NCBI GenBank assembly: GCA_034667725.1 | Contig: JAXDQS010000010.1 | Location: forward strand, 128,001-192,000 | Direction: 5' to 3' | Source: Thermoplasmata archaeon | GTDB taxonomy: Archaea; Thermoplasmatota; E2; JACPAO01; JAHFTW01 | Length of the DNA: 64,000 nucleotides | Part shown: positions 3,291 through 61,081 of the stretch, piece by piece | Layout: each line of letters opens with the position of its first letter | Numbering within the stretch: the first letter of the stretch is position 1 | The notes under the pieces: generated by a model | What the model saw: only the letters and a program-made list of their open reading frames with translations | Told to the model about the DNA's origin: nothing | Databases searched by the model: none | Translations under genes and position numbers: made by a program

Positions 3291-3312
3291 GTCCGGTCGA
3301 GGAAACCGGCGT

Positions 3313-4764: not shown

Positions 4765-5333
4765 CAGGCGAGCCCCCAGACGTTGATCTCGCCGGCGTCG
4801 ACCATCTCGGTGACGGAGGCGCGGAACGTGGTGAGCCAGCGGGCGAGCATCAGGCCGTGGCCCAGGATGAGGCCGGCAAGGACGCCGTTGAACGCGATGG
4901 CGGGGGCGCTCAGGACCTCGGTGGGGCCGGCGTCGCGCATCAGGGCCAGGACGACGAGGGTGGCCTCGACGCCCCAGAACACGAACAGCACGGCGGCGTA
5001 GAGGTAGGGGAGGTTGCGGCCGCTGCGGCCGTGGACCTTGCGGTGCAGCTCGGCGACCGACTCGGCGGCGGGGGCGTAGCGCATCCATTGGGTCCAAGTG
5101 CCGCGGATCGAGGCCTCGTATTTTCGGACCCGCATCCGGCCGGCAAGCAAGCCGACCAGGACGCCGACGAGGTAGGCGCCGGCGTGGACGGCCAGGCCGA
5201 CGAGCGGCATCAGCAGGTGGGCCAAGCCCAAGAACAGCAGGCCCAGCACGCCGCCCACCACCGCCCGGGTCCGGCAGGCACGCCGGTCCGCCCCCAGGAT
5301 GTCCAGGAAATGGCTGGCCACGCCTGAGGGCAT
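4764..5333 (-). CDS. Hypothetical 4-TM membrane protein
   Basis: 189 aa ORF with four hydrophobic segments; abuts the pyrC start. Confidence 0.7.
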   Translation of the reverse strand: MPSGVASHFLDILGADRRACRTRAVVGGVLGLLFLGLAHLLMPLVGLAVHAGAYLVGVLVGLLAGRMRVRKYEASIRGTWTQWMRYAPAAESVAELHRKVHGRSGRNLPYLYAAVLFVFWGVEATLVVLALMRDAGPTEVLSAPAIAFNGVLAGLILGHGLMLARWLTTFRASVTEMVDAGEINVWGLA

Positions 5334-5372
5334 GGCTCGGATGAGCCGCCCGCCTTTCTTGAAGGGCCCGGT

Positions 5373-32980: not shown

Positions 32981-35509
32981 GTGGTTCCCTTGGCCGCGCC
33001 TCGGTCGCTCAAAAATCGTGTTCCTTTTTTCCTCCAATGGATGGCCCTGGCGTTCCTTGTTTCGGTTACGGTTTTGGCGCTCGCGACCCCTTCGGACGCC
33101 GCTCAGGCGGCGGTCCAGGACGGGAACATCCGAATGGGGGTCATGGACGACGGCCTCCTAGGAATCCAGGAATCGCCCGCTTACTACAGCGCCTCCACCA
33201 GCCCTTTCACCCTCCTGCGCGACACCACCACCAACAATGAAGTCAACGCCAATTTTGGCGCCCGAGCCAACTCGTGGGGCGTCGCCTACGACAGCGCCAC
33301 GGCGACGCCGCGGGTCGGTTGCACCCAGAGTGGGTATGCGTTCGGCTGTTCAGGCCCCCCGTCGGTGCCTTTCAGCGGGACGAAAGCCTTGACCCCGACT
33401 GGCTCCTGCGGGGTGCCGACGGCCGCCTGCGAAGTCAAGGTCTGCAACGACTTCTTCAGCGAGCTCCGGGTGTGCCATGAGTTCCGGTCTAATCCACACC
33501 CTGATATCATCGAGGTCACGGTCACCTTGGAGAGCCTTCGGCCTGCCGTGGACGGTCCGTTGCAGGACGTCCTTTACCAGCGCGCCATGACCTTCGCGCC
33601 GGAGCCTTACACTGGCGCCTACTCGAGCAGCAGGCCCATTGTCCCTTCCCATATGATTCTGGAAGGCGTGGCGCCGCCACCTCCGGCATTGGTGTGGTCG
33701 AGCAACCAGCCGGCAAGCACTCGCCCTCCGACGGGAGGCTACGCTCCAATGGGATCCTGCGCTACAGGAACCAGCTATACTCCAGCCGAACCCAGCGGCG
33801 GCTGGTATGCTGCCCCGATCGGTCCCTGCTTCCAGGGGGCGCTGTTCGAGTTGGACTTGGGGGATATCCTCAATGGTTCGCCAGCGACGTTCCAAATGTT
33901 CTATGGTGCTTCCACTTCCTTGGCCAACGCCAGGGCAGCCGTCGGCCCGGCCGGCGTCAACGCCGACTTCTGGGCCCTCGGCATGCATTCGTCCGACCCG
34001 TCGATGGGCACCCCCAACACCTTCATCTGGGCCTTCGGCGGCCTCTCGCCGCCCACAGCCTCCTTCACGACCTCCCGTCCCAGCCCGCCGCCCGCCGCCG
34101 TCTTCGCCGCCACCACCGTCTGCCTGGGCGACGCGATGACCTTCCTGGACACCAGCCTTCCGGCCGGTTGGCCCATCACGGCCTCGACCTGGGACTTCAA
34201 CGACCCCCCCGCCCCCGATGCGTCCTCCGGTCCACGCGGCTCCGTCACGCACACGTTCAGTGCGCCTGGCACGTACACGGTCCAACAAACGGTGCTGGAC
34301 GACGGCGGCCGCACGGCGACATCCTCCCAAGCCATCACCGTCCTCGACTGCGCCGTCCCCGTGCCCGACTTCGCTGGGGAGCCGTGCGAGGGCCGCGCCG
34401 CCGCTTTCACGGACCTCACGCCCGCCGGCCCACATCCCTACGTCTCGTCGCAATGGATTTGGGGCGACAGCGGCGCCACGGTCCTGAACCCCTACGCCAC
34501 CAGCACGACCCACACTTACGCCGCGTCCGGCACCGTCGCGGTGACGCTACGGGTGACGAACGCCATTGGCATCGTCGGGGCCACCACCAAGAACATCGAG
34601 GTCTGCCCCATCGTCTGCCCAGACATTGAGCAGCCCGGCGTCGTCGTGGCCTACGAAAGCCAGCGCCTGCTGCTGCCGCTGCGCGCCACGGATCCCAACG
34701 GTCCGGTGCTGACGTTCACCATGGGGCCGCTGGCCGCGGGCACCTTCACGGCTGCGCCTGCCTCCGGGGCGGGCCCGCTCGTGGTGGACGGCATGCTCGA
34801 CTGGACGCCGAACCCCGGAACGCTCGGCACAGTCACCGTGACGTTCGCCGCCAACGACACGTTCTGCACGGTCGTGCGCGACGTCACGTTCCGCGTCGGC
34901 CTGACGCCGCTTGCCGACTCCGACTTGGATGGCGTGCGCGACGCGGCCGACAACTGTCCCGACACCGTCAACCGTGGCCAGGAGGACGTCGACATGGACG
35001 GCATCGGCGACGTGTGCGCGCCCGCGCCCGTGGCCAAGCCGCCGCCTGCGCCGCCAGCGTTCCGCAACGGCACCGCGTTCGACAGGGACGGCGACGGCAT
35101 CCTCGACCGCGCGGACGGCTGCCCCGTGGACCAAGATCCGTTGCAGGAAGACTTCGACCGCGACGGCCGCGGCGACGCGTGCGACCTCGACGCGGACGGC
35201 GACGGCGTGGCCGAGCGCGGACAGTCGGGGGCCGCCACGGTCCACTTGGACAACTGTCCGCTGCGGCCGAACCCCGACCAGACGGACGGAGACCGCGACG
35301 GCCTGGGCGACGCCTGCGACGGCCCGCAAGAGGCCCTTACCCTGTCGCCTCCCACGGAGCCGCCCGCCGTCCGGTCCTCCTCCGAAAGGTACGGGCTCTG
35401 GATGTTCGCGCTGGCGTTCCTGGCCACGATGGGCGCATTAGGCCTCGCCGTGTTCTTCCTGGAGCGCCGCAACCGCAAGCACGAGCCGCCATTAGCCAAA
35501 AACGCCTAA
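32981..35509 (+). CDS. Surface protein with PKD domains and thrombospondin type-3 Ca-binding repeats, TM-anchored
   Basis: TWDF...HTFSAPGTYTV PKD x2; DSDLDGVRDAADNCP..N..Q.D.D.DGIGDVC repeats; C-terminal TM + RRNRK; alternative start ATG 33041. Confidence 0.85.
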   Translation: MVPLAAPRSLKNRVPFFLQWMALAFLVSVTVLALATPSDAAQAAVQDGNIRMGVMDDGLLGIQESPAYYSASTSPFTLLRDTTTNNEVNANFGARANSWGVAYDSATATPRVGCTQSGYAFGCSGPPSVPFSGTKALTPTGSCGVPTAACEVKVCNDFFSELRVCHEFRSNPHPDIIEVTVTLESLRPAVDGPLQDVLYQRAMTFAPEPYTGAYSSSRPIVPSHMILEGVAPPPPALVWSSNQPASTRPPTGGYAPMGSCATGTSYTPAEPSGGWYAAPIGPCFQGALFELDLGDILNGSPATFQMFYGASTSLANARAAVGPAGVNADFWALGMHSSDPSMGTPNTFIWAFGGLSPPTASFTTSRPSPPPAAVFAATTVCLGDAMTFLDTSLPAGWPITASTWDFNDPPAPDASSGPRGSVTHTFSAPGTYTVQQTVLDDGGRTATSSQAITVLDCAVPVPDFAGEPCEGRAAAFTDLTPAGPHPYVSSQWIWGDSGATVLNPYATSTTHTYAASGTVAVTLRVTNAIGIVGATTKNIEVCPIVCPDIEQPGVVVAYESQRLLLPLRATDPNGPVLTFTMGPLAAGTFTAAPASGAGPLVVDGMLDWTPNPGTLGTVTVTFAANDTFCTVVRDVTFRVGLTPLADSDLDGVRDAADNCPDTVNRGQEDVDMDGIGDVCAPAPVAKPPPAPPAFRNGTAFDRDGDGILDRADGCPVDQDPLQEDFDRDGRGDACDLDADGDGVAERGQSGAATVHLDNCPLRPNPDQTDGDRDGLGDACDGPQEALTLSPPTEPPAVRSSSERYGLWMFALAFLATMGALGLAVFFLERRNRKHEPPLAKNA

Positions 35510-35702
35510 TAGGGACAAGCGGAAGCCGGGTCGTCGCGCCTGCTGCGACGGCTTTGCGTCCGTCGGCCCAGGCGGCGCTTTTGCGGCCGTGCCATCGCCT
35601 TGCATCGCGGGCCGTTGCGGGCGGTCGCCGCCTCCTGTCAACACAGAGTCTATGAACCCCGCCGGGCCTGCGCGCATCGCAGCCGGTGGCTGCTGTGGTT
35701 GC

Positions 35703-36119
35703 ATGCGTGGATTCCTTGTCCTTGTCCTAGCCAGCTTCTTGGTCGTTCCTGCAACGGCCTTGCCGCCGTTGACCCCGGTCTACGCCTACGGCGTGATCCA
35801 GGACAACGGCAACTTCCGCCTCGAGTGGAGCCCGCCTGCCACGGGCACCAACGGCATGACGGGCTACCGCGTCGAGCGCTACGTCGACGGCGTCCTGGAC
35901 GACGCCATCGTGGTCGCCGCCAGCGTGCACGCCTTCATCGACGACGTGGTCCCGACCGGCCTCGTCTACTACATCGTCTACTGGGCGAACGCCGAGGGCG
36001 TCTCCCCCGGCAGCAACCCCGTGGTCCGCGGCGAATACCCGCCCTGCAACTGGTTCTACGAGTCGCATGGGTTCCCTGGCTACGATCTGAAGCCGGAATG
36101 CCTCGTCCCACCGGTGTGA
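35703..36119 (+). CDS. Secreted FN3-domain protein with C-terminal Cys loop (cassette 1, gene A)
   Basis: Signal peptide; LEWSPP..GYRVER..YYIV..NAEG.S..SN; ends YPPCNWF..PGYDLKPECLVPPV. Confidence 0.78.
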   Translation: MRGFLVLVLASFLVVPATALPPLTPVYAYGVIQDNGNFRLEWSPPATGTNGMTGYRVERYVDGVLDDAIVVAASVHAFIDDVVPTGLVYYIVYWANAEGVSPGSNPVVRGEYPPCNWFYESHGFPGYDLKPECLVPPV

Positions 36120-36122
36120 TCG

Positions 36123-37547
36123 ATGCGCGCGGGTGGGCTCCTCATTGTCCTGATGCTGTTGGCCTTGGCCGCGCCTGCGACCGACGCCGCCCCGCTGGGC
36201 GACCTGCAAGCCCGCCAGATGCGCACCCTCGACCTCGCCGTGGCCGCCGGCGCCGCCAAGGCCATCGCGGTCACGGCCCCCACCGACGGCCCCGTCTCGG
36301 GGCATGACCTGCGCATCACCGCGGAGCGCATCGTGGTCGTGACCAACGAGGCCTGGAGCAACGCGACCGTCTTCGGCGCCGCGCCCAAAACGGAGACCCG
36401 CTCGGCGCCGCCGCAGGCCCACGAGGACGCCACCGTCGCCACCACCCGCGTCGGCGAGCGCTTCGACCTCACCATCATCCCCGCCGACGGCCAGGTCCGC
36501 ATCGAGTCGCTGGGCGGCACCGCCCTCCCCTCCGCCGACCCCGTCGTGGAGGGGGGCCGCCACGTCGACGACCCCGACCAGCCGCCGCTGTGGGCGACGG
36601 TCCAGGCCACCGTGGTCTGGCTGCCCAGCGGCGACGTGTCGATCCGCCTCGAAGGCGACTTCTCGCTCTCGGTCTGGGACTGGGACCTCCGCGTCTCGGG
36701 CCGCGACCTCCGCAGCGGCTTCTTCCGCGACACCACCGTCGGGAGCCTCGGCGTCAGCCTGCTGTCGCAGGACTACTCCGCCGAGCAGTTCCTTCAGGTC
36801 GAGAACGGCACCCTCGACCTCCGCGTCCCCGACGGCCGCGCCGCCCGCGCCTACCTCGCCCGCCTCGGCGTCAGCACCGACGGCGCCCTCGCGCTCTCCG
36901 GCGCCAGCGGCGACCTGCCCACCGCGGACGGCGTGCGCGCCCTCGACGGCACCATCATCCTCGAAGGCGGTGTCGCCATCGAGCTCCGGACGCTCAAGGA
37001 CAGCCTGGTCGCCGACGTGCTCCAAGCCGATTCGCTGCGCGCGGACGGCGCCGTCGTGCCGCTCGCCTTCGCCTCCGACAACGGCCCCGCCTCCCCGCTC
37101 CCCTGGCTCCTCGGCCTGCTCGGCGCCGTGCCGCTGGTCGCCGCCGCCTGGCGCTCCGTCGTCCTGACGCGCGCCCGCCGCGTCACGCTGCTGCGGATGG
37201 ACGCCGGCCGCTACGAGCTGGCGCTGCACGGCAGCCGCGGCCTGCTGCGCTCGCGCCGCCACCGCATCTTCGCCCGCACCGTGCGCACCGTCGCGCTGCT
37301 GCGCCTCGGCCGCCCCGCGGAAGCCCGCCAGCTGCTCGACGAGCGCCACTGGCAAGGCCCGCTTGCGGCCTCCCGCCTCTACCTGCTTGCCCACGCCAGC
37401 GCCCTCGAGGGCGACCGCGACGCCGCCCAGCGCCACCTGCAGGCCGGCCTCGCGCTCGACCGCGGGCTGCGCGCCGACGCCGCCACCAACCCCACCCTCC
37501 GCCCCCTGCTTGAGCGCACCCTCGCCAGCCGGGAGGGCTACACGTGA
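36123..37547 (+). CDS. Single-pass membrane protein with beta-rich ectodomain and TPR-like cytoplasmic tail (cassette 1, gene B)
   Basis: Signal peptide, GDFSLSVW, TM LPWLLGLLGAVPLVAAAW, YLLAH...DAATNPTLRPL...EGYT. Confidence 0.78.
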   Translation: MRAGGLLIVLMLLALAAPATDAAPLGDLQARQMRTLDLAVAAGAAKAIAVTAPTDGPVSGHDLRITAERIVVVTNEAWSNATVFGAAPKTETRSAPPQAHEDATVATTRVGERFDLTIIPADGQVRIESLGGTALPSADPVVEGGRHVDDPDQPPLWATVQATVVWLPSGDVSIRLEGDFSLSVWDWDLRVSGRDLRSGFFRDTTVGSLGVSLLSQDYSAEQFLQVENGTLDLRVPDGRAARAYLARLGVSTDGALALSGASGDLPTADGVRALDGTIILEGGVAIELRTLKDSLVADVLQADSLRADGAVVPLAFASDNGPASPLPWLLGLLGAVPLVAAAWRSVVLTRARRVTLLRMDAGRYELALHGSRGLLRSRRHRIFARTVRTVALLRLGRPAEARQLLDERHWQGPLAASRLYLLAHASALEGDRDAAQRHLQAGLALDRGLRADAATNPTLRPLLERTLASREGYT

Positions 37548-37984
37548 ACGACGGCGACGCCACCCGGCAGGTCATCCTCAACCTCCTGCAGCAGCACCCA
37601 GGCCTGCACAAGAGCGAGCTGGCGCGCGCCCTCGGCCTCGGCTGGGGCACCATCTCCTACCACCTCCAAGTGCTGTGCCAGACCGGCGCGGTCCAGCAGA
37701 TGCGCCGCGGCCGCCGCCTCCGGCTGTTCCCCGGCGGCATGGACGAGAAGCAGATGCGCCTGCTGTGCGCGATGCGGCAGGACGTCCAGAACGACATCCT
37801 GAAGGCGCTGACCTTCTCGCCCGGCGCCGCCGCCGAGTCGCTGGCCGACGAGCTGGGCCTGAGCCGCCGCCTCATCCGCCGCCACCTTGCCAGCCTGGAG
37901 GAGGACGGCATCGTGGACGCCCTGCACGTGCCCCGCACCGACGTCACCAACCTGCGGCAAGGCCTGGAGCCCTACCACCGCTAG
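37544..37984 (+). CDS. Double winged-HTH regulator, COG3398-like (cassette 1, gene C)
   Basis: HPGLHKSELARALGLGWGTISYHL..LFP and LADELGLSRRLIRRHL..LEEDGIV; GTGA overlap with gene B, GGAGG RBS. Confidence 0.85.
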   Translation: MNDGDATRQVILNLLQQHPGLHKSELARALGLGWGTISYHLQVLCQTGAVQQMRRGRRLRLFPGGMDEKQMRLLCAMRQDVQNDILKALTFSPGAAAESLADELGLSRRLIRRHLASLEEDGIVDALHVPRTDVTNLRQGLEPYHR

Positions 37985-38044
37985 CTTGCCGCTTTCAAGA
38001 ATCCGCCCGGAAACCCTAACCCTGCGGCTTCTGGGTGGGCTCCC

Positions 38045-38482
38045 ATGGCACGATCTGCCGTCCTTGCAAGCCTGCTCATGATCGCCCTGCTGGGCACCCC
38101 CGTCCACGCCGGCGCCCCCTACCAGTCCGGCGAAGGCTGGTGCGGCGGCCAAGCCCCCATCGCGTCCGCCTGCCAGGCCAAGCCCTACACGCTGCCATCG
38201 TCCATCACCGTGGACATCGACGCCCACCTGCTGTGCCTGCTCGTCTCAGGCTGCGAGGACGGCGAGGTCGTGGTCACGCTGCACGGCGCCACCGAGACCG
38301 GCACCGTCGAGAAGAGCTGCTCCTACTCCTTCAGCGCCAACAGCTGCACCGGCATCCAGAGGACCGGCGCCATGTACGTCGGCCAGGACATCGTGGTCAC
38401 CGGGACCGCGACCCTGCGCTGCGGCTCGACGGTCTGCGGCAGCCTGCCCGCCGCGGCCGAGTGGTCGGTCGCCGTCTACTGA
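38045..38482 (+). CDS. Small secreted 8-Cys protein
   Basis: Signal peptide; eight Cys in about 120 mature residues. Confidence 0.65.
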   Translation: MARSAVLASLLMIALLGTPVHAGAPYQSGEGWCGGQAPIASACQAKPYTLPSSITVDIDAHLLCLLVSGCEDGEVVVTLHGATETGTVEKSCSYSFSANSCTGIQRTGAMYVGQDIVVTGTATLRCGSTVCGSLPAAAEWSVAVY

Positions 38483-38626
38483 GCCGTCCCGCGGCCCTCT
38501 TCCTTCACCCCAACCCCTTTATCAAGCACGCCCGTGCCGCACCTGGAACGTCGCCCCGCCGCGTGGGCCGGCAACCGCCCCAGGCACCCGTTCGCCTGAG
38601 GCCCATTGGACGCGGCACGTGATAGT

Positions 38627-40141
38627 ATGCCGCAATCCAAGGAGAAGTCCCCCAAGCTCAAGCTCAGCGCCCAGGCCCAGAAGGTCGTCGACCTCAAGGC
38701 CACCTTCGCGGACCTGAAGCTCAGTCCCACCACCATCGCGGCCCTCGACAAGCTCGGCTTCGCCCATCCCACCCCCATCCAGGAAAAGACCATCCCGCTT
38801 CTCCTGGAGGGCCACGACGTCATCGGGCAGGCGCGCACCGGCACCGGCAAGACCGCCTCGTTCGGCCTGCCCATCATCGAGACGTACGACCCGGCGGCCA
38901 AGCACGTTCAGGCGCTGATCCTGGCCCCGACGCGCGAGCTGGCGCTGCAAATCCACGACGAGATGATCCGCTACGCCGCCAACCGCGAGTTCCGCATCCT
39001 CGCCATCTACGGCGGCACCGGCTACGAGGTCCAGGACAAATCCCTCAAGCAGGGCGTCCACGTCGTCGTCGGCACCCCCGGCCGCATCATGGACCACATG
39101 GAGCGCGGCACCCTCGACCTGCGCTCCACCAAGCTCCTGGTGCTGGACGAGGCCGACCGGATGCTCGACATGGGCTTCATCGACGACGTCGAGAAGATCC
39201 TCAAGTCGATGCCGGGCAAGCACCACCGCCAGACCCTGCTGTTCTCGGCCACCATGCCCGAGGAGATCAAGGGCCTCACCCGCCGCTTCATGGTGCAGCC
39301 GCAGTTCGTCCGCGTCAGCGCCGACGAGCTCACGGTCCCCGAGATCGACCAGGTCTACTACCCCGTCGGCCGCCGCAACAAGCACTGGGCCCTCACCCGC
39401 GTCCTCGACAACGAGCCCGAGCAGGACCTGGTGCTGATCTTCTGCGCCACCAAGATGATGTGCGACCGCCTCAAGGAGGACCTCAACCGCTGGGGCTACA
39501 ACGCCGAGGCCATCCACGGCGACCTTCCCCAAAGCAAGCGCGAACGCGTCCTTGCGGACTTCGACGCCGGCAAGGTCAAAATCCTCATCGCCACCGACGT
39601 CGCCGCCCGCGGCCTCGACATCGACCGCATCACCCACGTCGTCAACTTCGACCTCCCCGAGACCGAGCCCGAGGTCTACGTCCACCGCATCGGCCGCACC
39701 GGCCGCGCCGGCCGCAAGGGCAAGAGCATCTCGTTCGTCAGCCTCGACGACAAGCCGCTCTTGAAGCGCATCGAGATGCTGATCGGCCGCGAGATCAAGG
39801 AGGCCACTCCGCCGGCCGGCGCCGACGGCAAGCCCGACCGGGTCGAGCGCAAGACCGACTGGGACGAGCTGGCCGACAAGTACGGCAACGTCCACCTGCG
39901 CGTCAACGCCGGCCGCGACGACGGCCTCACGCCCTACCTCCTGCACAAGCTGGTCGCGGAGTCCACCCGGCTCCCCGACCACGCCATCCGCGACATCATC
40001 GTCCACCGCCACGAGGCCGGCTTCGCCGTGCCCAAGGACGCAGCACTCTCGGCCCGCCAAGGGCTGCAGAGCATCAAGCTGGACGGCTACAAGCTCGACG
40101 CGGAGTTCGAGTCGCGCGAGACCACTGTCCGTACGGCCTGA
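38627..40141 (+). CDS. deaD: DEAD-box RNA helicase with DbpA-type C-terminal domain
   Basis: PTPIQ, ARTGTGKT, PTRELA, DEAD, SAT, ARGLD, HRIGRTGR. Confidence 0.93.
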   Translation: MPQSKEKSPKLKLSAQAQKVVDLKATFADLKLSPTTIAALDKLGFAHPTPIQEKTIPLLLEGHDVIGQARTGTGKTASFGLPIIETYDPAAKHVQALILAPTRELALQIHDEMIRYAANREFRILAIYGGTGYEVQDKSLKQGVHVVVGTPGRIMDHMERGTLDLRSTKLLVLDEADRMLDMGFIDDVEKILKSMPGKHHRQTLLFSATMPEEIKGLTRRFMVQPQFVRVSADELTVPEIDQVYYPVGRRNKHWALTRVLDNEPEQDLVLIFCATKMMCDRLKEDLNRWGYNAEAIHGDLPQSKRERVLADFDAGKVKILIATDVAARGLDIDRITHVVNFDLPETEPEVYVHRIGRTGRAGRKGKSISFVSLDDKPLLKRIEMLIGREIKEATPPAGADGKPDRVERKTDWDELADKYGNVHLRVNAGRDDGLTPYLLHKLVAESTRLPDHAIRDIIVHRHEAGFAVPKDAALSARQGLQSIKLDGYKLDAEFESRETTVRTA

Positions 40142-40166
40142 GCTTCGCAAAAACTGCCGTAGGCGG

Positions 40167-40445
40167 TCAAATCATCCTAGCCAGATAATTCTCGCCTTGC
40201 TCCACCTCGGCGTCGCAGTGGCGCTTGTACTTCATGGCCACGGTGACAAGGGTTGCGGTCAGAACGGCATATGCGACCATCAGTTCTGATTTTTGGATTA
40301 ACAACGCGTCCGAGCCGGCGAGCGCGATTCCAATCAGGGCAAGTGAGAGTGCCGATCCGAGAACGGCAAGCGCGACAACCGCTCGTAGCGCCACCCGCGC
40401 GACAAAGGCCCGAATCTTCAGTTGGTCAAGCTCACTTCGGTCCAT
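40167..40445 (-). CDS. Small 2-TM hypothetical protein with atypical codon usage
   Basis: 92 aa, two hydrophobic helices, visibly more A/T than its neighbours. Confidence 0.5.
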   Translation of the reverse strand: MDRSELDQLKIRAFVARVALRAVVALAVLGSALSLALIGIALAGSDALLIQKSELMVAYAVLTATLVTVAMKYKRHCDAEVEQGENYLARMI

Positions 40446-40506
40446 GAATCGGTCAGCGGGGCCGCCGGCATAACGATATCGAGTTAGTAAAACGAACCGG
40501 CCAAGC

Positions 40507-41583
40507 TCACACTAGCACGCACCCGTGCCACGCGATCTCGTCGCCCGGCTGGAACGCCATGCCCGTGATGCCGAGCGGCGCGGACGCGCCGTTGACGTCG
40601 TAGCACCAGTCCGACAGGGCGCCGTAGCCGTCGATGGACTCGACGCCGAAGCCGAACGAGTCGTTGAAGCTGAACTCGACGGCGCGGCCCGTCTGGGTCC
40701 AGGCCACCAGCACGTCGTGGACGTTGGCGTGCGGCGGGTGGGCGATGGGCTTGCCGTCATAGTCGGGCGCCGACAGGAAGGCGTCGATGTCGAGCCAGAC
40801 CTCGTCGTCCAGCGGCGCTTTCTGGGGGATGGCGGCCGTGAACTCGGCCTGCACGCGGGCGGAGGCGAGGCGGACCGCGACCACGTCGCGGACGGCCGTG
40901 GCCTTGCCGTCGTCGGCGAGCACCCGGAGCGGCGTCTGCCCGTAGTCGAGCGGCACGGTGACGCTCCATGGGCCGGCGGGCACGTCGGCCGTCGTGGCGT
41001 TCGTCACCGTCAGGCGGACGGCGCGGTCCACCGTGCCCGCGAGCACCAGGGTCGCGCTGCGGGTCGGCGCCGGCGCCGTGACGGTGAGCGTGAGGGGGCC
41101 CGTCGCCGGCTTCAGGGGCGCGGCGGCGGTCGGGGTGGCGGTCGCGGTGCCGGAGGCGGCGGTCGGGCTCGTGGAGCTGCCCTCCGAATCCTGGTCCAGC
41201 GGCGTGTAGGTCCAGGACACGGTGTCGCCGGCGTGGACCTGGACATCGTCCATGCCCGTCATGCTGGCGACCCCGTTGAGCGCGAGCGCCCAGTGGCCTT
41301 CGGCGCCTTGCGAGCAGCCGGGGGTCTTGGGCACGCCGTCGATGGCGTCGAGGCAGTGGCCGAAGCTGAACTCCTGCATGTCCACGCGGACCCCGGAGTG
41401 GTGGGACCAAGCCAGCAGCTGGTGGTAGGCGGTCGCGGCCTCGGCCGCGGGCACGGTGGCGTCCACGTCGGCGTGGGGCGCGGGGAAGTCGAGGAGGATG
41501 CGGGTCGTGGGGCCGTCGTCGGCGGCGCAGCCGGCAAGGAGGGCGGCGACGAGCAAGGCGATGGCGAGATGGGTCTGGGTCAT
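40507..41583 (-). CDS. Lipoprotein with two DUF4430 (transcobalamin C-terminal-like) domains
   Basis: LAGC lipobox; FG..(L/V)..IDG...W...NG.....G......GD...W occurs twice. Confidence 0.75.
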   Translation of the reverse strand: MTQTHLAIALLVAALLAGCAADDGPTTRILLDFPAPHADVDATVPAAEAATAYHQLLAWSHHSGVRVDMQEFSFGHCLDAIDGVPKTPGCSQGAEGHWALALNGVASMTGMDDVQVHAGDTVSWTYTPLDQDSEGSSTSPTAASGTATATPTAAAPLKPATGPLTLTVTAPAPTRSATLVLAGTVDRAVRLTVTNATTADVPAGPWSVTVPLDYGQTPLRVLADDGKATAVRDVVAVRLASARVQAEFTAAIPQKAPLDDEVWLDIDAFLSAPDYDGKPIAHPPHANVHDVLVAWTQTGRAVEFSFNDSFGFGVESIDGYGALSDWCYDVNGASAPLGITGMAFQPGDEIAWHGCVLV

Positions 41584-42512
41584 GGGCGGCACCGGGCGAG
41601 GAGGGCGGAATAGGCGAGCAGCAAGAGGGGAAGGAGGACGGCTGGGCCCGGCGCGGCGCGCGGCGTGGCCGCGGCGGCCGGCGGGCCGTCGAGGGCGAGC
41701 GCCAGCGGGGGCGAGGCGCGGCCGGCGCCTTCGCTGCGCAGCTCCAGGGTGTGGTTGCCGGGGAGGGCGGGCACTTCGAGGCGCCACGTCGGGCCGGTGG
41801 CGCGCGCCTGCCATGCGCCGTCGTCGAGGCGGAACGCGAGCGCCGTGGCGTTGCCGTCGGCGTGCCGGCCTTCGACCTGCCAGGCGTCGGCGCGCGTGGC
41901 CGCGGCCGTCGGAGGCGTGAGCGGGAGGGCGCGCCACGCCGCGACCGTGGCTGGCGCGGGCGGCACCGTGGCCTGGAGACTGGCGGTGGCGTCGAAGCGC
42001 TCGCCGCCGTCGGCGGCGTTGGCGGCGATGACGTGGTTGCCGTTGGCGGCCAGGACCGCCAGCCACGCCTGGGCGGGCTGCGGCTCGTGGGCCAGGTCCG
42101 GCGCGGTCCAGGCGACCTGCCACTCGCGCCGCAGGGTTCCGTCGGCAGTGTAGGTGGCTTCACGCGCGTCGGGGAGGCGGACCAGGTCCTCCATGCCGGC
42201 GGGGACCGCGAGGCGGCCGGCGCCGACGGCCAGGTCGAAGCCGCCTTGAGGCTGCGGCGCGGGCATGGCGGCCGGGCCGCCGCCGACGCGGACAGTCAGG
42301 AGGTAGCTGGCGCCGGGCAGCCAGCCGTCGGCGGGCAGGCCTTCGAGCGTGGCCGTGGCTTCGGTCGCCACCAGGGGCGGGACGGTGTGGCAGGCCAGGC
42401 AGGTGAGGCCGTTTTTGCCCGAGAAGCCGTCGGAGCCGCCGAAGTTGGCGGACGCGGTCCAGGCGACGGCCAGGAAGAGGGCGGCTGCGGCGAGGCGGGC
42501 GGCGGACGACAC
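41580..42512 (-). CDS. Choice-of-anchor V / Reeler-like surface protein with CxxCH
   Basis: Signal peptide, G.TCLACH, PG.SY.LTV, GGF.L, W...WTAP, AANGN; APGP + TM tail. Confidence 0.7.
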   Translation of the reverse strand: MSSAARLAAAALFLAVAWTASANFGGSDGFSGKNGLTCLACHTVPPLVATEATATLEGLPADGWLPGASYLLTVRVGGGPAAMPAPQPQGGFDLAVGAGRLAVPAGMEDLVRLPDAREATYTADGTLRREWQVAWTAPDLAHEPQPAQAWLAVLAANGNHVIAANAADGGERFDATASLQATVPPAPATVAAWRALPLTPPTAAATRADAWQVEGRHADGNATALAFRLDDGAWQARATGPTWRLEVPALPGNHTLELRSEGAGRASPPLALALDGPPAAAATPRAAPGPAVLLPLLLLAYSALLARCRP

Positions 42513-42622
42513 TTCAACCCCGGTTGTTGGGATTCAACCAGGATGGAACGGCCAAAAGGCTTGCTTCAACAGGTGTTGAGGGAGCCGCCACCATGATATC
42601 CACGCCAAGGGTCGCGCGCGCG

Positions 42623-44140
42623 ATGCCGAAGCCTGCCGCCGCGCCCGCCCCGACGGTCGAGGACGCCCTTGCCGTCCTGCCCGACCTCGACGCCGACCAG
42701 GTGCGCAAGGTCGTGGCGCTCGGCAAGAAGGCATGGCCGTACCGCTTCCCCGCGGAGCGCGACCTGGCCGCGCTGCGCGCCCGCCTGGAGGCGGCGCACC
42801 AGCCGGGCCAGAAGGGCGACGCGCCCGGGGCCAAGCGCTACAAGGTCGCGGGCCGGCTGCGCGCCAAGCGCGGCAGCGGCGGCATCGCGTTCCTTGATTT
42901 GGAGGGCCAGGACGGCAAGATCCAGTGCATCCTCGACAAGGGCGAGCTGGGGGACGCGGCGTTCGACGCGGCGCTGCACCTGCTGAACGAGGGCGACTGG
43001 GTCGGAGTCGCCGGCTACGGGATGCGCTCGAAGCGCGGCGAGCCCTCGATCGGCGCGGAGAAGGTCACGCTGCTTGCCAAGGCGCTGGTGTCGTTCCCGG
43101 ACCTGGGGCAGGCGGAGGCGCCGGAGCTGCGCTATGGCCGTCCGTATGTCGGCCTGATGCAAGGCCCGGCGGCGCGGCGGCCGTTCGTGCAGCGCGCCCG
43201 CATCACCCAAGTGGTCCGCCAAGTGCTGGAGAAGGCCGGCTTCCTGGAGGCGCACATCCCGGTCTTGGAGAAGGTGTACGGCGGCGCCAACGCCCAGCCG
43301 TTCGTCACCCACTCGAACGCGAAGGACATGCCGATGTACCTGCGCATCAGCCACGAACTGGCCCTGAAGAAGCTCCTCGTGGGCGGCCTGGAGCGGGTCC
43401 ACCACATCGGGCCGGCGTTCCGCAACGAGGACATCGACACCACCCACAACCCCGAGTTCACGCTGCTGGAGTGCTACGCCGCCTACTGGGACTACACAGA
43501 CATGATGCGGCTCACCGAGAAGATGTTCCAGGCCGCGGTGAAGGCCGTGAACGGCGGCTCGCTGGTGCTGCAGCGCCCGGGCAAGGAGCCGCTGGACTTC
43601 GGCACGTTCCACGTCGTCACGATGAAGGACGCGATCCGCTCGCACGGCGGCCCCGACCCCGACACCGTGTCGGACGAGGAAATCCAGAAAATCCTCGCGG
43701 AGGCCAACGTCCACATCCGCGGCGGCTACTCGCGCGGCCTCGGGGTCGCCAAGCTGTTCGAGGTCTACGCCGAGCCCCTCCTGGTGCAGCCGACCTTCGT
43801 CATCGACCACCCGCGCGAGACGACCCCGCTGTGCAAGGCGCACCGCAAGGACCCCAGCCTGGTCGAGCGGTTCGAGCTGTTCATCGCCGGCCGCGAGCAC
43901 GCCAACTCCTACTCCGAGCTCAACGACCCCATCCTGCAAGCGCGGCTGTTCGCCGAGCAGGAGGCCCGGCGCAAGGGCGGCGACGACGAGGCCCCGCCGA
44001 CCGACCAAGACTTCATCCAAGCCCTGAAGCATGGCATGCCCCCCGCGGGCGGCCTCGGCGTGGGCATCGACCGCATGGTGATGACCCTCCTCGACCTCGA
44101 CTCGATCAAGCAAGTGCTGCCGTTCCCGCAGATGAAGTGA
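42623..44140 (+). CDS. lysS: Lysine--tRNA ligase, class II
   Basis: OB fold AGRL..KR..G..F.DL; GGANAQPFVTH, YLRISHEL, FRNEDID..HNPEFT, ERFELF, GMPP.GG.G.GIDR; ATG 42593 is an alternative start. Confidence 0.95.
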   Translation: MPKPAAAPAPTVEDALAVLPDLDADQVRKVVALGKKAWPYRFPAERDLAALRARLEAAHQPGQKGDAPGAKRYKVAGRLRAKRGSGGIAFLDLEGQDGKIQCILDKGELGDAAFDAALHLLNEGDWVGVAGYGMRSKRGEPSIGAEKVTLLAKALVSFPDLGQAEAPELRYGRPYVGLMQGPAARRPFVQRARITQVVRQVLEKAGFLEAHIPVLEKVYGGANAQPFVTHSNAKDMPMYLRISHELALKKLLVGGLERVHHIGPAFRNEDIDTTHNPEFTLLECYAAYWDYTDMMRLTEKMFQAAVKAVNGGSLVLQRPGKEPLDFGTFHVVTMKDAIRSHGGPDPDTVSDEEIQKILAEANVHIRGGYSRGLGVAKLFEVYAEPLLVQPTFVIDHPRETTPLCKAHRKDPSLVERFELFIAGREHANSYSELNDPILQARLFAEQEARRKGGDDEAPPTDQDFIQALKHGMPPAGGLGVGIDRMVMTLLDLDSIKQVLPFPQMK

Positions 44141-44143
44141 CCC

Positions 44144-44614
44144 CTAGTCCAAGCCCAGGCGCTCGTCGTCCTCCAAGTGGCGGTCGCGCCGCGTGGTCCC
44201 GACGATGTGCTCCGGCGGCAAGAGCGGACGGTAGCGCGGCCGCGTGACCCCCACCTTCTCGACCACGCCGTCCTCGATCATCCGGGTCAGATGGGCGCGC
44301 ACCACCTTGCGGGTGAAGCCGATGTCGTCGCTGATGCGGTAGACGCCCGACATCGGGTGCGCCAGCAAGGCCTCCAGCACGCGCGCCGCGTCCTCGTCAT
44401 GCAGCGCCCGCAGCCACGGCCGGTCGTGCGCCGGCACCTCGCCGGGGAACAGCTCGTGGCTCCAGCCGCGGTCCTCGACGTGCAACAGCCGCTGGCGCGT
44501 CAGCACGCGGACGTGGTGCTGGATGGTCGCCCAGCGCACGCCCAGCAGCGAGCACAGCTCGTTCTTGGTGATGCCGGGGCGGCTGGCCACCGCCGCCCGG
44601 ATGCGGGCCCGCAT
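44144..44614 (-). CDS. Double winged-HTH regulator, COG3398-like (cassette 2, gene C)
   Basis: RPGITKNELCSLLGVRWATIQHHV..LFP and ISDDIGFTRKVVRAHL..MIEDGVV; start uncertain (frame open further upstream). Confidence 0.82.
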   Translation of the reverse strand: MRARIRAAVASRPGITKNELCSLLGVRWATIQHHVRVLTRQRLLHVEDRGWSHELFPGEVPAHDRPWLRALHDEDAARVLEALLAHPMSGVYRISDDIGFTRKVVRAHLTRMIEDGVVEKVGVTRPRYRPLLPPEHIVGTTRRDRHLEDDERLGLD

Positions 44615-44649
44615 CGCGTCACCGTCGCGCAGGGCGATGAAGAGCGGCG

Positions 44650-46053
44650 CTAAACGTATCCCTCCACGAGCGCCGCGCGGCGCGTCTCCGCCTTCCGAAG
44701 GGCCTCCGCCACCAGGCCCCGCAGCGCGGGGTCGGCCGCCGCATCGCGGGCGTAGCCGGGGCTGACCGCGATGCAGTTGGCCAACGATTCGAGCGCCTCG
44801 CCGCGCCGGCCTTGCAGCGAGCGCAGGTGGGCCAAGAGGTAGTCGCGGGTGTCGCGCCGCCGCGCCCAGCGACGCGCCGGGCCGAGGCGGCGCTCCGCGC
44901 GCGCCAACTGGCCCGAGCGCAGCAGCGCCACGGCCTCGGCGACGCGGGCGTCGCGGCCCGCCCACGGCAGCCACGCCAGCCGCGACGCGGTGGCGGCGGC
45001 TTGCGGGTAGTCGCGCGCGTCCATCCGGCGCCGCAGCAGGACGCGCTGGTGGCGGTAGGCGGTGGCCGCCAAGGCGACGACGGCCAGGCCGGCAAGCCAC
45101 CACGGCCACAGCGCGCCGAGGCCGGGGCCGTCGGCGGCCTCCAGGCCGGCGCCCTCGATGGCGGCGACGTCCCCCAGCTCGAGGCGCACCGCCGCCGACT
45201 GGGCGCGCAAGGCCCCCGCCAGCGGGGCGCGCAGCACGACGGTGGCGGGCGCCACCGCCTCGCCGGCGACCACCAGCCGCGCCGAATGCAGCGAGACGCT
45301 GCCGGCGGCCATCGCGAGGGACGCGTCCTCCAAGAGCGCCGTGGTGGCGTTGGCGAGCACCAAGGTCAGTTCGGCGCCGCGCAGGTCGGCGTACGCCTCG
45401 ACCTGGACGTTCTCCATGACGGGCACGCCTGGCGCGACCGTGGGCGTGCTGTGCTGCCCGGTCTCCGCCGTGACGGTCCCGTTGGCGCTCGCGAAGGTGG
45501 CGTCGGCGCCCCAGACGACCAGCCGGAAGTCGCCGCGCACCGACCACTCCCTGCCGCCCAGCGCCGCCAACGCCCCCCGCGCCTCATACGTGGTCTGCGG
45601 CCGGACCGTGCTGGCGTGCGGCTTGAAGGTGGTGGTGCCCGCCGTGGCGGCCTCCACCGCCAGCCCGGCCAGCTGGGCCTCGGCGGAGCGGGGCGCAAGC
45701 GGAATCAGGACGAGGCGGCAGTCCTTGGTCCCATTGACCAGCACGCGGACGTCGCGCAGGTCGCTGGGTTCGGTGGTCACGTCGGCGTCCAGCGGCGCAA
45801 CACCCACGGCCGAGTACGCGACCTGGCTGCGGTCCACCTCGACGTGGGCGCTCGCCGCCGTCCCCACCAGGCGGACGCTGCCGCACGCCTGCTCCTGATG
45901 GGACCAGGCGCGCAACGGGCCCGCGAGGTCCGCGTGCCCCGCGACCTCGACGCGGGTGGCGGTGCCTGTGACGGCGACGCCCGCGTGGACGGAAGGAGAA
46001 AGAAGGAGCAGCAGGAAAAGGGCCAGCGCCCAGGCCCAGCCCGGCCGGTGCAT
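44650..46053 (-). CDS. Single-pass membrane protein with beta-rich ectodomain and TPR-like tail (cassette 2, gene B)
   Basis: Signal peptide, GDFRLVVW, TM WPWWLAGLAVVALAATAY, YLLAH...DAAADPALRGL...EGYV. Confidence 0.78.
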   Translation of the reverse strand: MHRPGWAWALALFLLLLLSPSVHAGVAVTGTATRVEVAGHADLAGPLRAWSHQEQACGSVRLVGTAASAHVEVDRSQVAYSAVGVAPLDADVTTEPSDLRDVRVLVNGTKDCRLVLIPLAPRSAEAQLAGLAVEAATAGTTTFKPHASTVRPQTTYEARGALAALGGREWSVRGDFRLVVWGADATFASANGTVTAETGQHSTPTVAPGVPVMENVQVEAYADLRGAELTLVLANATTALLEDASLAMAAGSVSLHSARLVVAGEAVAPATVVLRAPLAGALRAQSAAVRLELGDVAAIEGAGLEAADGPGLGALWPWWLAGLAVVALAATAYRHQRVLLRRRMDARDYPQAAATASRLAWLPWAGRDARVAEAVALLRSGQLARAERRLGPARRWARRRDTRDYLLAHLRSLQGRRGEALESLANCIAVSPGYARDAAADPALRGLVAEALRKAETRRAALVEGYV

Positions 46054-46095
46054 CAGCCGTGGGACAATGAGGCCGGATATCGCCCTTCTGGGCGA

Positions 46096-46284
46096 CTAAG
46101 GGCCGATGGGCGGCAACGGCAGCAGGCAGGTGGGGTCGAGGGTGTAGGTGGGTGGGTTGGTGTCGTCGTCGTGCATGAACACCTGGCAGTGCGGCCAGTG
46201 GTCGAGCGGGCCTTCATCCTCCCCCGGCGGGTCGGCGGGCTCGTCCGCGACGCAGTTCGGAATCCAGGCCAAGGCGATCGTCAA
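46096..46284 (-). CDS. Small putatively secreted Cys-loop peptide (cassette 2, gene A)
   Basis: Ends WPHCQVF...PPTYTLDPTCLLPLPP, matching the tail of 35703-36119; start uncertain. Confidence 0.65.
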   Translation of the reverse strand: MTIALAWIPNCVADEPADPPGEDEGPLDHWPHCQVFMHDDDTNPPTYTLDPTCLLPLPPIGP

Positions 46285-46584
46285 CAGGGCTGTCGCTAGT
46301 CTCGTGGGGCATCACTTCCGGCCGCCGAAGCCGACGGCCGGAGTCCCATCCCGCAGCAGGCTTATCGCCCGATTCGCAAGAACTGGGGTCGTTCTTTGCT
46401 AAAAATGGGAACGTTCCGAAAGCAACGCCCGGCCGCGACGCCCATGCACGACCAAAAGCGCGCATCCCGCGGTTTTGCTCCAATGACCCGGGCTTGCGTT
46501 GGGCGGCGGACCAAGGCCATGGTGCAAGCGAAGGTCTCGGGCTGTCCCAAAAGCATCATGACCTAGGGCGGCGGAGGTTTCCCA

Positions 46585-47469
46585 ATGAGCCCCGGGCGCG
46601 CCTGCATCGGGCTTGGCCTTGCTGGCCAAGGCGTGGCGCTGCTGTCCGGCGTCGTGCCCCACGAGGACCCGCTGGTGGGCGCCGGCCTCTTGGCCTTCGG
46701 CCTCGCCTTGGTGGCCACGGGGACCATGCCCGCCTTGCCGGCGCTGCGGCGGTGGCACCTGCTGGCCTGCGGCGGCGCCGCCCTCGCCGCCGCCGGCGCC
46801 GCGTGGGCACTCTCGGGCCGGGCCCCCTCGGGGCCGCTGCTGCTGCTCGGGCTCCTGGGCACGACGCTCGTGGCCGCCGCCGCGCTCCACGGACGGTCCT
46901 TGCAGGCGGGCGGACGGGCTTGGCCCGCCCGGGACCTTGCCGCCGGCGCCGCCGTCGCCCTCGGGGCGCCGCTTGCGGTCTGGCTGGCGCAGGCCGCCTT
47001 CAAGCGGGTGGCCGCCACGACGCCGCTGGAGGCGTTCGAGATGCTGTTCCTGGTGGCGCCGGTCCACTGGATGCTCGGCCAGGCCGGGTTCGCCACGACC
47101 ATGGACGGCCAGACCCTGACCATGCAGGGCACGCACGGCCTCCTGACGGTCCAGGTGGGCGCGGCGTGCTCGGGGCTGCAGGCGATGGCGTTGTTCATGG
47201 GGATGCTGGCGCTGTTTGCCGCCACGCAGCGCCCGCCGGGCCGCCGCCTTGCCGTCTGGACCGTCGTGGGCTTGGCCGGCGTCTACGTCGCCAACGTGCT
47301 GCGGCTGTTCGTCGTGATCCTGGCCGGCCACCAATGGGGCGCTGGGGCCTTGCAGGAGGTCCACGCCAACGCGGGCTGGGCGTTCTTCGTGGCCTGGAGC
47401 CTGCTGTTCGCCGTGTGGCTGCGGCGCGACCTTCAACGCATGCGGGCCGCGTCCCCGCCCATGGCCTGA
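46585..47469 (+). CDS. Exosortase/archaeosortase family protein (ArtC-like)
   Basis: About eight TM helices; catalytic-type Cys (AACSGL), Arg (ANVLR) and His (EVHANAG). Confidence 0.88.
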   Translation: MSPGRACIGLGLAGQGVALLSGVVPHEDPLVGAGLLAFGLALVATGTMPALPALRRWHLLACGGAALAAAGAAWALSGRAPSGPLLLLGLLGTTLVAAAALHGRSLQAGGRAWPARDLAAGAAVALGAPLAVWLAQAAFKRVAATTPLEAFEMLFLVAPVHWMLGQAGFATTMDGQTLTMQGTHGLLTVQVGAACSGLQAMALFMGMLALFAATQRPPGRRLAVWTVVGLAGVYVANVLRLFVVILAGHQWGAGALQEVHANAGWAFFVAWSLLFAVWLRRDLQRMRAASPPMA

Positions 47470-50905: not shown

Positions 50906-51225
50906 GGCCGGTCATCCGGGAACCTTCGACATGTCCTTTTTTTTGTAGAACCGGGAGCGTTCCGTCAAGCTTCAATGCCGGGCCCGTTGCGCCGCGTCAA
51001 CATGTTCGGGTCGGTCGGTTGCCGCTATCTTTTCGGGGCCGGCGGTTGGATCATTTTCGGGGGCAGGGCGATGAAGTCCGCCGCATTGCACCGCAGCGCG
51101 GACGCCAAACGCAAGGCCGTCTTGGACAGCCTGCGCGCGGTGTCGCGAAATCCACCCGACGCCCATCCCATGCCCTGACGAAATTCGCAAGGTTTTTCCA
51201 TAATGGTTTTGTCAGCGGTTGCAGC

Positions 51226-59962: not shown

Positions 59963-61081
59963 CTAGTGCGCGGCCGGCGCCACGACCGGCAGCCAGAACG
60001 CCATGCGGGCCCCTTGGCCCGGGCCGGCGCTGTCGGCCGTGAGCTCGCCGCCGTGCAGCTCGACGATGGCCTTGCTGATGTAGAGGCCGAGGCCGGTGCC
60101 GGGGCGGTCGTGGCCGCGGTAGAACGGCTGGAACATGCGGCGGCGCTGATCGGCCGTGAAGCCGAGGCCGGTGTCGGTGACCGCGACATGGACGGCGGGC
60201 CCGGCGGGGCTGGCGCGCGCCTCGGCGTGGATCAGGATGCGGCCGCCGTCCAGGGTGAACTTGAGGGCGTTGCTGAGGAGGTTGTGGAGCACCTGGGTGA
60301 TGCGGTCGGGGTCGAGGGCGGCGGGGAGGGCGCCGGGGCACTCCAGGTCGAGCCGGATGCCGGCGCGCTCGGCGGCGGGGCGGTAGGTCTCGGCGCACTC
60401 GCCCAAGAGGACGCAGAGGTCGGTGTCGCTGCGCCGGATGGAGCGCTTCTGCCAGTCGAGGCGGGCGACGTCGAGGACCTGGCGCACCAGGTTGTGCAGC
60501 CGCTTCAGGTTGCGGTCCATCAGCTCCAGCGACCGGGCGAGGCGCTCCGGGTCGGCGCCCAGCTCGCGCAGGTACTGGAGCTGGAGCAGGATCGGGGTCA
60601 GCGGGGTCAGGAGCTCGTGGGCGACGGCGTTGAGCATCTCGCGGCGCTCGTCGTCGAGCTGGCGCAGCCGCTCGTTGGAGTGGCGCAGCGCCTCCTCGGC
60701 GCGCTTGCGGTGCGTGATGTCGCGCGCGACCTTGGAGGCGGCCACGACGCGGCCGGTCGCGTCGCGGATGGGGGACACGGTGACGGACACGTCGATGAGG
60801 CGGCCGTCCTTGCGGCGCCGCACCGTCTCGTAGTGGTCCACCTTGTGGCCGGCGCGGATGTTGGCCAGGATGGCGTCCTCCTCCCCTTCGCGGCCGGCCG
60901 GGAACAGGATGGTCATGGGCTTGCCGATGGCCTCGGCCGCGGTGTAGCCGAACATCTGCTGGGCGCCGCGGTTCCAGCTCAGGATGCGGCCGTCGAGGTC
61001 CTTGCTGACGATGGCGTCGTCGGACCCCTCGACGATGGCGGCAAGGTGGGCAAGGCTTGCGACCTCGTCCAGCGGGGCCAT
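59963..61081 (-). CDS. Cytoplasmic PAS-domain sensor histidine kinase
   Basis: PAS (SDDAIV..DLDG.I.SWN), H-box AHELLTPL, N-box NLLSNALKFT, DTGLG, FQPF, GTGLGL. Confidence 0.93.
   Translation of the reverse strand: MAPLDEVASLAHLAAIVEGSDDAIVSKDLDGRILSWNRGAQQMFGYTAAEAIGKPMTILFPAGREGEEDAILANIRAGHKVDHYETVRRRKDGRLIDVSVTVSPIRDATGRVVAASKVARDITHRKRAEEALRHSNERLRQLDDERREMLNAVAHELLTPLTPILLQLQYLRELGADPERLARSLELMDRNLKRLHNLVRQVLDVARLDWQKRSIRRSDTDLCVLLGECAETYRPAAERAGIRLDLECPGALPAALDPDRITQVLHNLLSNALKFTLDGGRILIHAEARASPAGPAVHVAVTDTGLGFTADQRRRMFQPFYRGHDRPGTGLGLYISKAIVELHGGELTADSAGPGQGARMAFWLPVVAPAAH

Follow-up and report, generated by a model that had tools for sequence, protein, structure and literature searches.

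Two copies of a three-gene cassette are found on a 64,000-nucleotide stretch of archaeal DNA (the window: positions 128,001 to 192,000 of contig JAXDQS010000010.1, handle C10, of assembly GCA_034667725.1). The source is an uncultured metagenome-assembled genome of the Thermoplasmata, with 2.32 Mb in 26 contigs and a G+C content of about 70%. Each cassette, or triad, encodes a protein A that ends in a two-cysteine hairpin, a membrane protein B and a double winged helix-turn-helix (wHTH) regulator C. The triad is a genuine recurrent unit with fixed gene order, given that there are four in this genome and that metagenome contigs and the majority of genomes from its family and order carry it too. 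Judged from sequence and modelled structure, the triad is rated as a predicted system, made of new protein families, that would control a transcription factor from a membrane tether. The unit is absent from Pfam, NCBIfam, PADLOC and the full-text literature searched, in agreement with an earlier reading of the window from its letters alone (the original prediction), which knew of no prior description.

The triad would be a transmembrane signalling cassette, complete in itself and specific to its lineage of uncultured Thermoplasmata. A would be exported, and its disulfide-stapled C-terminal β-hairpin would pair with the fast-evolving ectodomain of the type I membrane protein B, such that each cassette may have a private A/B specificity. 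The TPR tail of B would bind the co-translated C, or control it otherwise, and a change outside the cell would then alter the amount of free C reaching the DNA, with no kinase involved. The core of this proposal, in which the hairpin of A pairs with the ectodomain of B and the TPR tail controls C, is tentative, and is given slightly less than an even chance. Binding of A to B and of B to C, the sequestration and release of C, and its target genes are all parts that we infer. The six genes of the window are:

35703-36119, plus strand: A1, from its translation a secreted protein with an FN3-like domain and a two-Cys hairpin
36123-37547, plus strand: B1, with signal peptide, all-β ectodomain, one transmembrane helix and a tail of three TPRs
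37544-37984, plus strand: C1, a double winged-helix regulator
46096-46284, minus strand: A2, a short-class A protein whose start codon is uncertain
44650-46053, minus strand: B2, a paralogue of B1 with the same architecture and the C-terminus EGYV
44144-44653, minus strand: C2, a double wHTH regulator

Recurrence and linkage of the triad

Both cassettes lie where they had been predicted, in the order A-B-C, and all of the motifs quoted for them are present in the translations: GDFxLxVW, RMDAxxY, ALLRxG, YLLAH, DAAx[ND]PxLRxL and a terminal EGY[TV] in B, DGDAxR in C and the Cys tail of each A. The GTG start of C1 overlaps the stop of B1 (GTGA), and the TTG start of C2 overlaps the TGA stop of B2 (TTGA). 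The G+C content at third codon positions (GC3) is 0.82-0.96 in the called frames of the cassette genes. By pairwise BLASTP, C1 and C2 are 32% identical over 145 amino acids (aa; E 5e-24), the alignment of B1 with B2 is limited to the tail (38% over the last 88 aa, E 4e-8), and the tails of A1 and A2 align with E 8e-4. The two B ectodomains are joined by a profile search, with an E value of 1.8e-163 for B2.

The likeness of the two cassettes, first noted by eye, exceeds chance. A strict form of the two-Cys pattern occurs only in A1 and A2 when all six frames of the 2.3 Mb genome are read, and the matches in this genome to a hidden Markov model built from 59 A tails are confined to genes adjoining B. 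A generic C-x(9-34)-C near the C-terminus is present in 12.8% of the likely coding open reading frames (ORFs) of this genome, as compared to about 84% of the genes upstream of B.

By tblastn and reading-frame analysis, the genome contains four complete triads and two partial units. Triad 1 has an orthologue on a 12 kb metagenome contig (L005), with all three genes and the Cys motif kept, and the identical A-B-C order is found on unrelated metagenome contigs. When a profile of six B proteins is run against 41 related genomes, 22 of them contain B, at up to 12 copies per genome, and E values go down to 1e-186. With an ectodomain-only profile, B is found in 33 genomes out of a sample of 401 from the whole phylum: it is present in 18 of the 20 genomes of its own order and in 7 of 9 of one other family, and is not matched in several large families (0/54, 0/48, 0/36 and 0/58 genomes). 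Among 1.84 billion representative proteins, the B profile search returns at least 927 clusters (50% identity) at E ≤ 1e-30. Of the top 150, one is a TPR-only giant and one has a mis-called start; all others are full-length proteins of 440-530 aa. A word-index protein search with B1 alone returned one relative, and a related-locus search queried with C1 found nothing. Fusions of B with C did not turn up in word-index searches, which were weak: the B alignment was swamped by TPR proteins, and the ectodomain alignment was without a match among longer proteins. A 628 aa protein (P0077) was considered as a fusion of A with B and rejected, as its start is mis-called and it contains no hairpin.

These data bear on the reading in which the cassettes are unrelated and resemble each other by chance or through an artefact of annotation, a reading of negligible probability. 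The genome is so rich in G+C that spurious long ORFs abound, and A2 as assembled has no proper signal peptide. However, the GC3 values, the profile E values, the conservation of the three genes in dozens of genomes and the confident structural models all stand against it, and the recurrence data exclude it.

Linkage of the three genes was assessed in the flanks of 76 B genes from the 41 related genomes. A gene for an A protein with a C-x(12-29)-C end lies directly upstream of B at about 61 of 73 evaluable loci, and a gene for C lies within 150 nt downstream of B, on the same strand, at 42 of 74. At 24 of 38 B-C junctions the start of C and the stop of B overlap, in the ATGA, GTGA, TTGA and TGATG types. 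The presence of C also follows the C-terminus of B, in that 30 of the 37 B proteins that end in GY[TASV]-COOH (Tyr at -2) have an adjacent C, versus 12 of the 39 others. Other B subfamilies, which end in [FW]W[LQ][QL]P or DP[AS][FV]x, have no adjacent C and keep TPR-like tails. These subfamilies are found at L013, L054, L060, L062 and L096 and at L020, L065, L076, L089, L004 and L061, most with an A hairpin gene upstream. Beside the B-like genes of distant Thermoplasmatota families, C is found at 2 of 10.

Architecture of the A, B and C proteins

The only part common to all A proteins is the Cys tail, as the original prediction had it for A1 and A2. Its consensus runs from [YW]PxC through a short hydrophobic strand, (P)P and a second strand to x-C-[LI]-x-P; in 30 long A proteins both Cys and one Pro are invariant or near-invariant columns. 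Two size classes are seen. The short class, of 62-74 aa, consists of a signal peptide, an acidic linker and the hairpin; it has clear signal peptides at 13 related loci and includes A2 (acidic linker, then WPHC...PTC LLPLPP). The long class, of about 120-225 aa, has an FN3 domain between signal peptide and hairpin and includes A1 (YPPC...PEC LVPPV); most A proteins are FN3 proteins of 120-220 aa. The A1 orthologue on L005 (P0008) retains the Cys motif, and the A1 start at 35703 is supported by this contig, since the upstream ATG at 35652 corresponds to a stop there. The description of A1 as an FN3 protein does not stand on the single sequence, which scores 14.1 bits against Pfam PF00041 (FN3), below the cut-off of 25. 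It is upheld at the level of the family: 7 of 30 long A proteins match PF00041 at E ≤ 0.01, and a profile of these 30 matches solved single FN3 domains from the PDB, such as FN3con with E 2e-13 over profile positions 27-109.

The assembled A2 starts with a TTG codon, and its signal peptide is reduced to a stub of only eight hydrophobic residues, followed by the acidic linker. On the minus strand, an ATG at 46312-46310 is one base out of the A2 frame across a CCCC run (46284-46312), and removal of one C from the run would give a canonical signal peptide, MPTRLATALLTIALAWIPNC..., that resembles those of the short A proteins of relatives. The discrepancy is either an assembly slip or a genuine frameshift.

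An exosortase/archaeosortase family gene (46585-47469, plus strand) is divergent from cassette 2; it matches TIGR04178 with 67.8 bits, and its nearest model is archaeosortase C, for which it falls below the cut-off. The A proteins stop 2-12 residues past the second Cys, with no hydrophobic helix. A was considered as an archaeosortase substrate of the PGF-, PEF- or VPXXXP-CTERM kind, in which a C-terminal motif precedes a transmembrane helix and a basic tail, and rejected, given that it has no transmembrane tail; therefore, the neighboring gene is unlikely to act on A.

The AlphaFold2 model of whole B1, from a 36-row alignment, has a mean predicted local distance difference test score (pLDDT) of 89.7. 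It contains a signal peptide, an all-β ectodomain of about 300 aa with strands of up to 28 residues, one long transmembrane helix (residues 328-350, approximately) and seven helices that form a cytoplasmic tail of three TPRs terminating in EGYT. B thus has the topology first proposed for it, and by its structural matches the tail is a genuine TPR fold. By Foldseek, the tail matches YscY with probability 1.0, a TMt of 0.78 and 26% identity (TMt 0.75-0.79 over the class II chaperones matched), and also matches PcrH and MamA. By VIA-align, it matches the TPR domains of Sti1, OGT, IpgC and Hop with Z values of 12-13 over 114-128 residues, where a Z near 13 is the limit of trust that the tool itself sets for helical repeats; GmaR-MogR (7x9s) is also among these matches. 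By sequence, the tail is below threshold for Pfam TPR_4 (17.3 bits vs 27), for NCBIfam TPR_END_plus (19-24 vs 32) and for SctY (19 vs 70). No HTH is matched in B by Pfam.

The B1 ectodomain modeled alone reaches a pLDDT of 94.4 and a predicted TM score of 0.90. Foldseek gives no convincing match to it in the PDB (TM score ≤ 0.15). Against 48,161 chains, VIA-align gives a best Z of 6.7 over about 95-109 of 299 residues, to β-sandwich domains of NAD and lipid kinases and PI3K. Predicted viral structures (BFVD) give no match either (TM score ≤ 0.17), and searches of the ESM Atlas by shape and by features return matches to the TPR part only, or none. The absence of a structural match is not proof of a new fold. 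No family in Pfam, NCBIfam or PADLOC covers the A tail or the B ectodomain. The invariant residues of the ectodomain are limited to Gly, Pro and Trp, and it has no adhesin-type repeats. B was considered as an enzyme and rejected, as the ectodomain has no conserved polar residues and its few invariants argue against a catalytic role.

C is a double wHTH regulator of the HVO_0163 type, in line with the proposed second HTH. C1 is a member of Pfam PF24266 (HTH_HVO_0163_N) with 55.9 bits against a gathering cut-off of 31, C2 is just below that cut-off at 30.2 bits, and the same family is carried by the triad 1 orthologue and the metagenome neighbors. Both halves of C1 match HTH_24 and HTH_5. The C proteins are 146-169 aa in length, with two wHTH domains and no hydrophobic segment, and about 25 C-like double-wHTH paralogues are encoded in this genome, most of them not beside B. 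No function for the HVO_0163 family was found in the literature searched, where HVO_0163 is named only in an acetylome study.

Rates of change and readings of the triad

The outside parts of the triad change fast, and the inside parts slowly. Between the window and the L005 orthologue, amino acid identity is 36% for A, 44% for the signal peptide of B, 55% for the ectodomain, 75% for the transmembrane segment, 91% for the tail and 95% for C (P0009 on L005). Nucleotide identity runs likewise: it is about 50-60% from A to the middle of the ectodomain, reaches 86-97% over the tail and C, and collapses past the C stop. A second orthologous pair shows 32% for A, 29% for the ectodomain, 40% for the transmembrane segment, 75% for the tail and 92% for C. 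Three recent paralogues within one related genome (L013, L062 and L077) are 66-82% identical in the signal peptide and FN3 domain of A, but only 36-48% identical in the hairpins and 27-32% in the ectodomains. The hairpin and the ectodomain diverge together, faster than the remainder of A, and the three paralogues look like diversification of the cassette by swapping of its specificity parts. Across 24 complete triads, tail distances correlate with C distances (r 0.72; partial 0.61 given the ectodomain) more strongly than ectodomain distances do (r 0.54; partial 0.29 given the tail).

The split between a fast outside (A and ectodomain) and a slow inside (tail and C) fits two interaction pairs. 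Peptide binding is established for the TPR fold of class II chaperones and of Hop. Two contact pairs split by the membrane, together with the holding of peptides by TPRs, lead to the reading that B, anchored in the membrane, would hold or modulate C, in a state set by events at the pair of A and ectodomain. A complex prediction with the B1 tail (residues 340-474, 36-row alignment) and C1 (33-row alignment), run without controls, gave a score of 0.03, with a mark of 0.32, and speaks neither for nor against binding.

Several observations weigh against the signalling proposal. The hairpin distance matrix is saturated and uninformative (r ~0.14 over the 24 triads). The correlation of the tail with C, and part of the GY signal, could reflect DNA adjacency, through fewer recombination breaks and through a GAGGG Shine-Dalgarno-like sequence and overlapping start; adjacency could also yield the ranking of the correlations. 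The fast change outside fits an arms race or surface variation equally well. C is absent beside 43% of B genes, and TPR-like tails are present there too; therefore, A and B are the core pair and C is the accessory of one subfamily, and the tail of a C-less B must have another partner, unless its C is encoded elsewhere. An A hairpin gene is found at none of six inspected B-like loci of the distant Thermoplasmatota families, so A is not required for every B.

Some of these points favor a reading in which A and B form a variable surface structure, for adhesion, as an envelope scaffold or for recognition of self and non-self. C would then be only the transcription factor that turns the operon on or off and never touch B, and the TPR tail would anchor B to another partner in the cytoplasm or in envelope assembly. 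This reading is rather unlikely, though it is the main rival. In its favor, linkage of A to B (~84%) is stronger than that of C, which is dispensable (57%), FN3 domains are typical of surface proteins, TPR tails occur in all B subfamilies whether C is adjacent or not, most of the C-like regulators are not beside B, and cassettes 1 and 2 adjoin a PKD and thrombospondin type 3 repeat (PKD/TSP3) gene and the archaeosortase-family gene, respectively. However, the overlap of the C start with the B stop and the joint conservation of tail and C at 91-95% suggest more than shared transcription, a short A that is only linker and hairpin is poor structural or adhesive material, and the ectodomain has neither invariants beyond Gly, Pro and Trp nor repeats of the adhesin type.

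The extremely fast divergence of the outside parts beside a conserved inside also suggests an interface with viruses or competitors. In such a role, A and the hypervariable ectodomain would be targets, decoys or sensors, and C would launch protection, or the pair would merely vary the surface. The number of paralogues, up to 12 per genome, and their patchy distribution in the phylum are consistent with this, but we consider it improbable. A1, A2, B1 and B2 match no PADLOC family, and for C1 and C2 the matches are confined to the generic wHTH part of Csa3, CasR and CARF models. Predicted viral structures include no match to the ectodomain model, and no genes of mobile elements or defense islands were identified beside the four triads, where window neighbors were searched against Pfam and translations were read at the other loci.

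A stronger form of the signalling proposal is that the triads are private channels of recognition, the first such systems in archaea, with a hairpin signal read only by its cognate ectodomain, pherotype-like groups that arise within and between populations as hairpin and ectodomain change rapidly together, a phosphorylation-free relay in which the membrane-tethered TPR holds or frees the double-wHTH regulator, and an ectodomain of new fold. Taken as a whole, this stronger form is unlikely.

Several known systems resemble the triad. The extracytoplasmic function (ECF) sigma/anti-sigma sets, such as FecA-FecR-FecI and the clostridial RsgI-SigI, also combine a single-pass membrane protein that has a variable outside domain with its own co-transcribed factor, in many paralogous sets, with Fec adding a third component, outside the cell, that delivers the signal. 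The triad differs in its TPR inside domain, its double-wHTH factor, its unrelated ectodomain and hairpin families, and in showing no sign of regulated proteolysis. No sigma-70 or anti-sigma domain is found in A, B or C by Pfam or NCBIfam, even at permissive E values, and to our knowledge archaea have no sigma factors. The class II chaperones of type III secretion (YscY, PcrH and IpgC) are the best structural match of the B tail, as three-TPR modules with a peptide groove, and IpgC also partners the transcription activator MxiE. These chaperones are soluble, bacterial proteins of secretion systems, whereas B carries its tail as part of a membrane protein with a large ectodomain, in an archaeon without such a secretion system.

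In the ToxR type of system, a winged-helix regulator is controlled at the membrane from outside, with a second outward-facing protein. The DNA-binding domain and the transmembrane segment are there in one polypeptide, in contrast to the triad, where C is separate and soluble and no DNA-binding domain is present in B. A survey of partnered transmembrane transcription regulators (ToxR/ToxS, TcpP/TcpH) and of CadC, PMC10269533, makes no mention of TPR or Thermoplasmata.

The pherotype loci agr and comQXPA place a small secreted product, a receptor and a regulator in one operon, with hypervariable signal and sensor and a conserved regulator, but they relay the signal via histidine kinases. RRNPP regulators also combine TPR with HTH, but as a fusion that binds an imported peptide in the cytoplasm, whereas the TPR of the triad is membrane-tethered. 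Unlike the signals of agr, com and RRNPP systems, most A proteins are FN3 proteins and not peptides. C1 belongs by score to the HVO_0163-type regulators, a family with most of its members in this genome elsewhere than beside B. In short, the triad resembles ECF, ToxR-type and pherotype loci in logic but lacks the features that define each of them.

The original prediction called the triad kinase-free. This is true of its proteins, given that Pfam finds no histidine kinase (HisKA/HATPase_c) or receiver domain in A, B or C, but not of the organism, which has kinases of its own: its genome encodes about 20 histidine kinases and 24 receiver domains, with one kinase domain in the window at about 59984-60313 on the minus strand. 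The idea that triads substitute for missing two-component systems was rejected on these counts.

Little is known of how information crosses the membrane in archaea beyond borrowed two-component systems and chemotaxis. The triad offers a compact three-gene unit with hundreds of natural variants and 4-12 copies per genome in some lineages, with a defined hairpin of 20-30 residues that can be synthesized and a small soluble regulator. If the relay is true, it would be an archaeal counterpart of anti-sigma signalling made from unrelated parts, and a source of natural orthogonal sensor-regulator pairs. If A and B are instead a variable surface complex, they are still two new protein families that mark an order of uncultured Thermoplasmata. 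As the hosts are uncultured, testing needs heterologous work.

Upstream boxes, neighboring genes and further loci

Both cassettes had been described as lying beside surface-protein loci that were plausible targets. This is not general, as triads 3 and 4 lie among housekeeping-type genes (PheRS-like, endonuclease III-like, MsrA-like and AlaRS-like, as read from translations, with no family search), and the triad 1 orthologue on L005 follows a different secreted-protein gene.

Directly upstream of cassette 1 is the gene for an 842 aa surface protein with PKD and thrombospondin type 3 repeats (32981-35509, plus strand), and its promoter has two inverted copies of ATTAGCCAA. In the whole 2.3 Mb genome there are only 10 copies of the ATTAGCCAA(A) box, and four of them fall within 7 kb in the window. 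Most copies precede a TATA-like stretch by 8-10 nt and a gene for a signal-peptide protein by 35-100 nt, the PKD/TSP3 gene and A1 being among these genes. The box looks like a regulon box for secreted proteins, with the triad 1 operon included; we infer any link of the CCATTAGCCAAAAACGCCTAATAGGG/ATTAGCCAA box to C1.

Upstream of A2 lies a box with an A/T-rich stretch after it. A similar element at about 50948-50985 on the minus strand, before a minus-strand operon beside the archaeosortase-family gene, shares with it the form CGGAACGYTCCC plus A/T-rich stretch. The 10-nt core of the A2 box is not above chance, with 3 matches versus 1.85 expected. Among repeated 10-mers upstream of triads 2-5 there is no clear operator, and only the ATTAGCCAAA box of triad 1 stands out. 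The boxes and the other triads are placed as follows, with copies elsewhere in the genome given by contig handle and position:

35487-35516, plus strand: candidate promoter/operator box CCATTAGCCAAAAACGCCTAATAGGG, about 190-215 nt before the A1 start and conserved in L005
46402-46440, minus strand: CGGAACGTTCCC box, then an A/T-rich stretch, upstream of A2
Copies of ATTAGCCAA in the window: 28537, 32867 (minus strand), 32937 and 35491
Copies of ATTAGCCAA elsewhere in the genome: C3:244074, C3:353189, C3:605045, C6:92501, C1:229352 and C10:390880
Copies of ATTAGCCAA around the L005 triad: 8201, 9180 (minus strand) and 9350
Partial units: L003, B and A with no C; L004, B alone
Further triad, L001: A 3812-4027, B 4052-5392, C 5386-5889
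Further triad, L002: A 3033-3527, B 3518-4936, C 4930-5412

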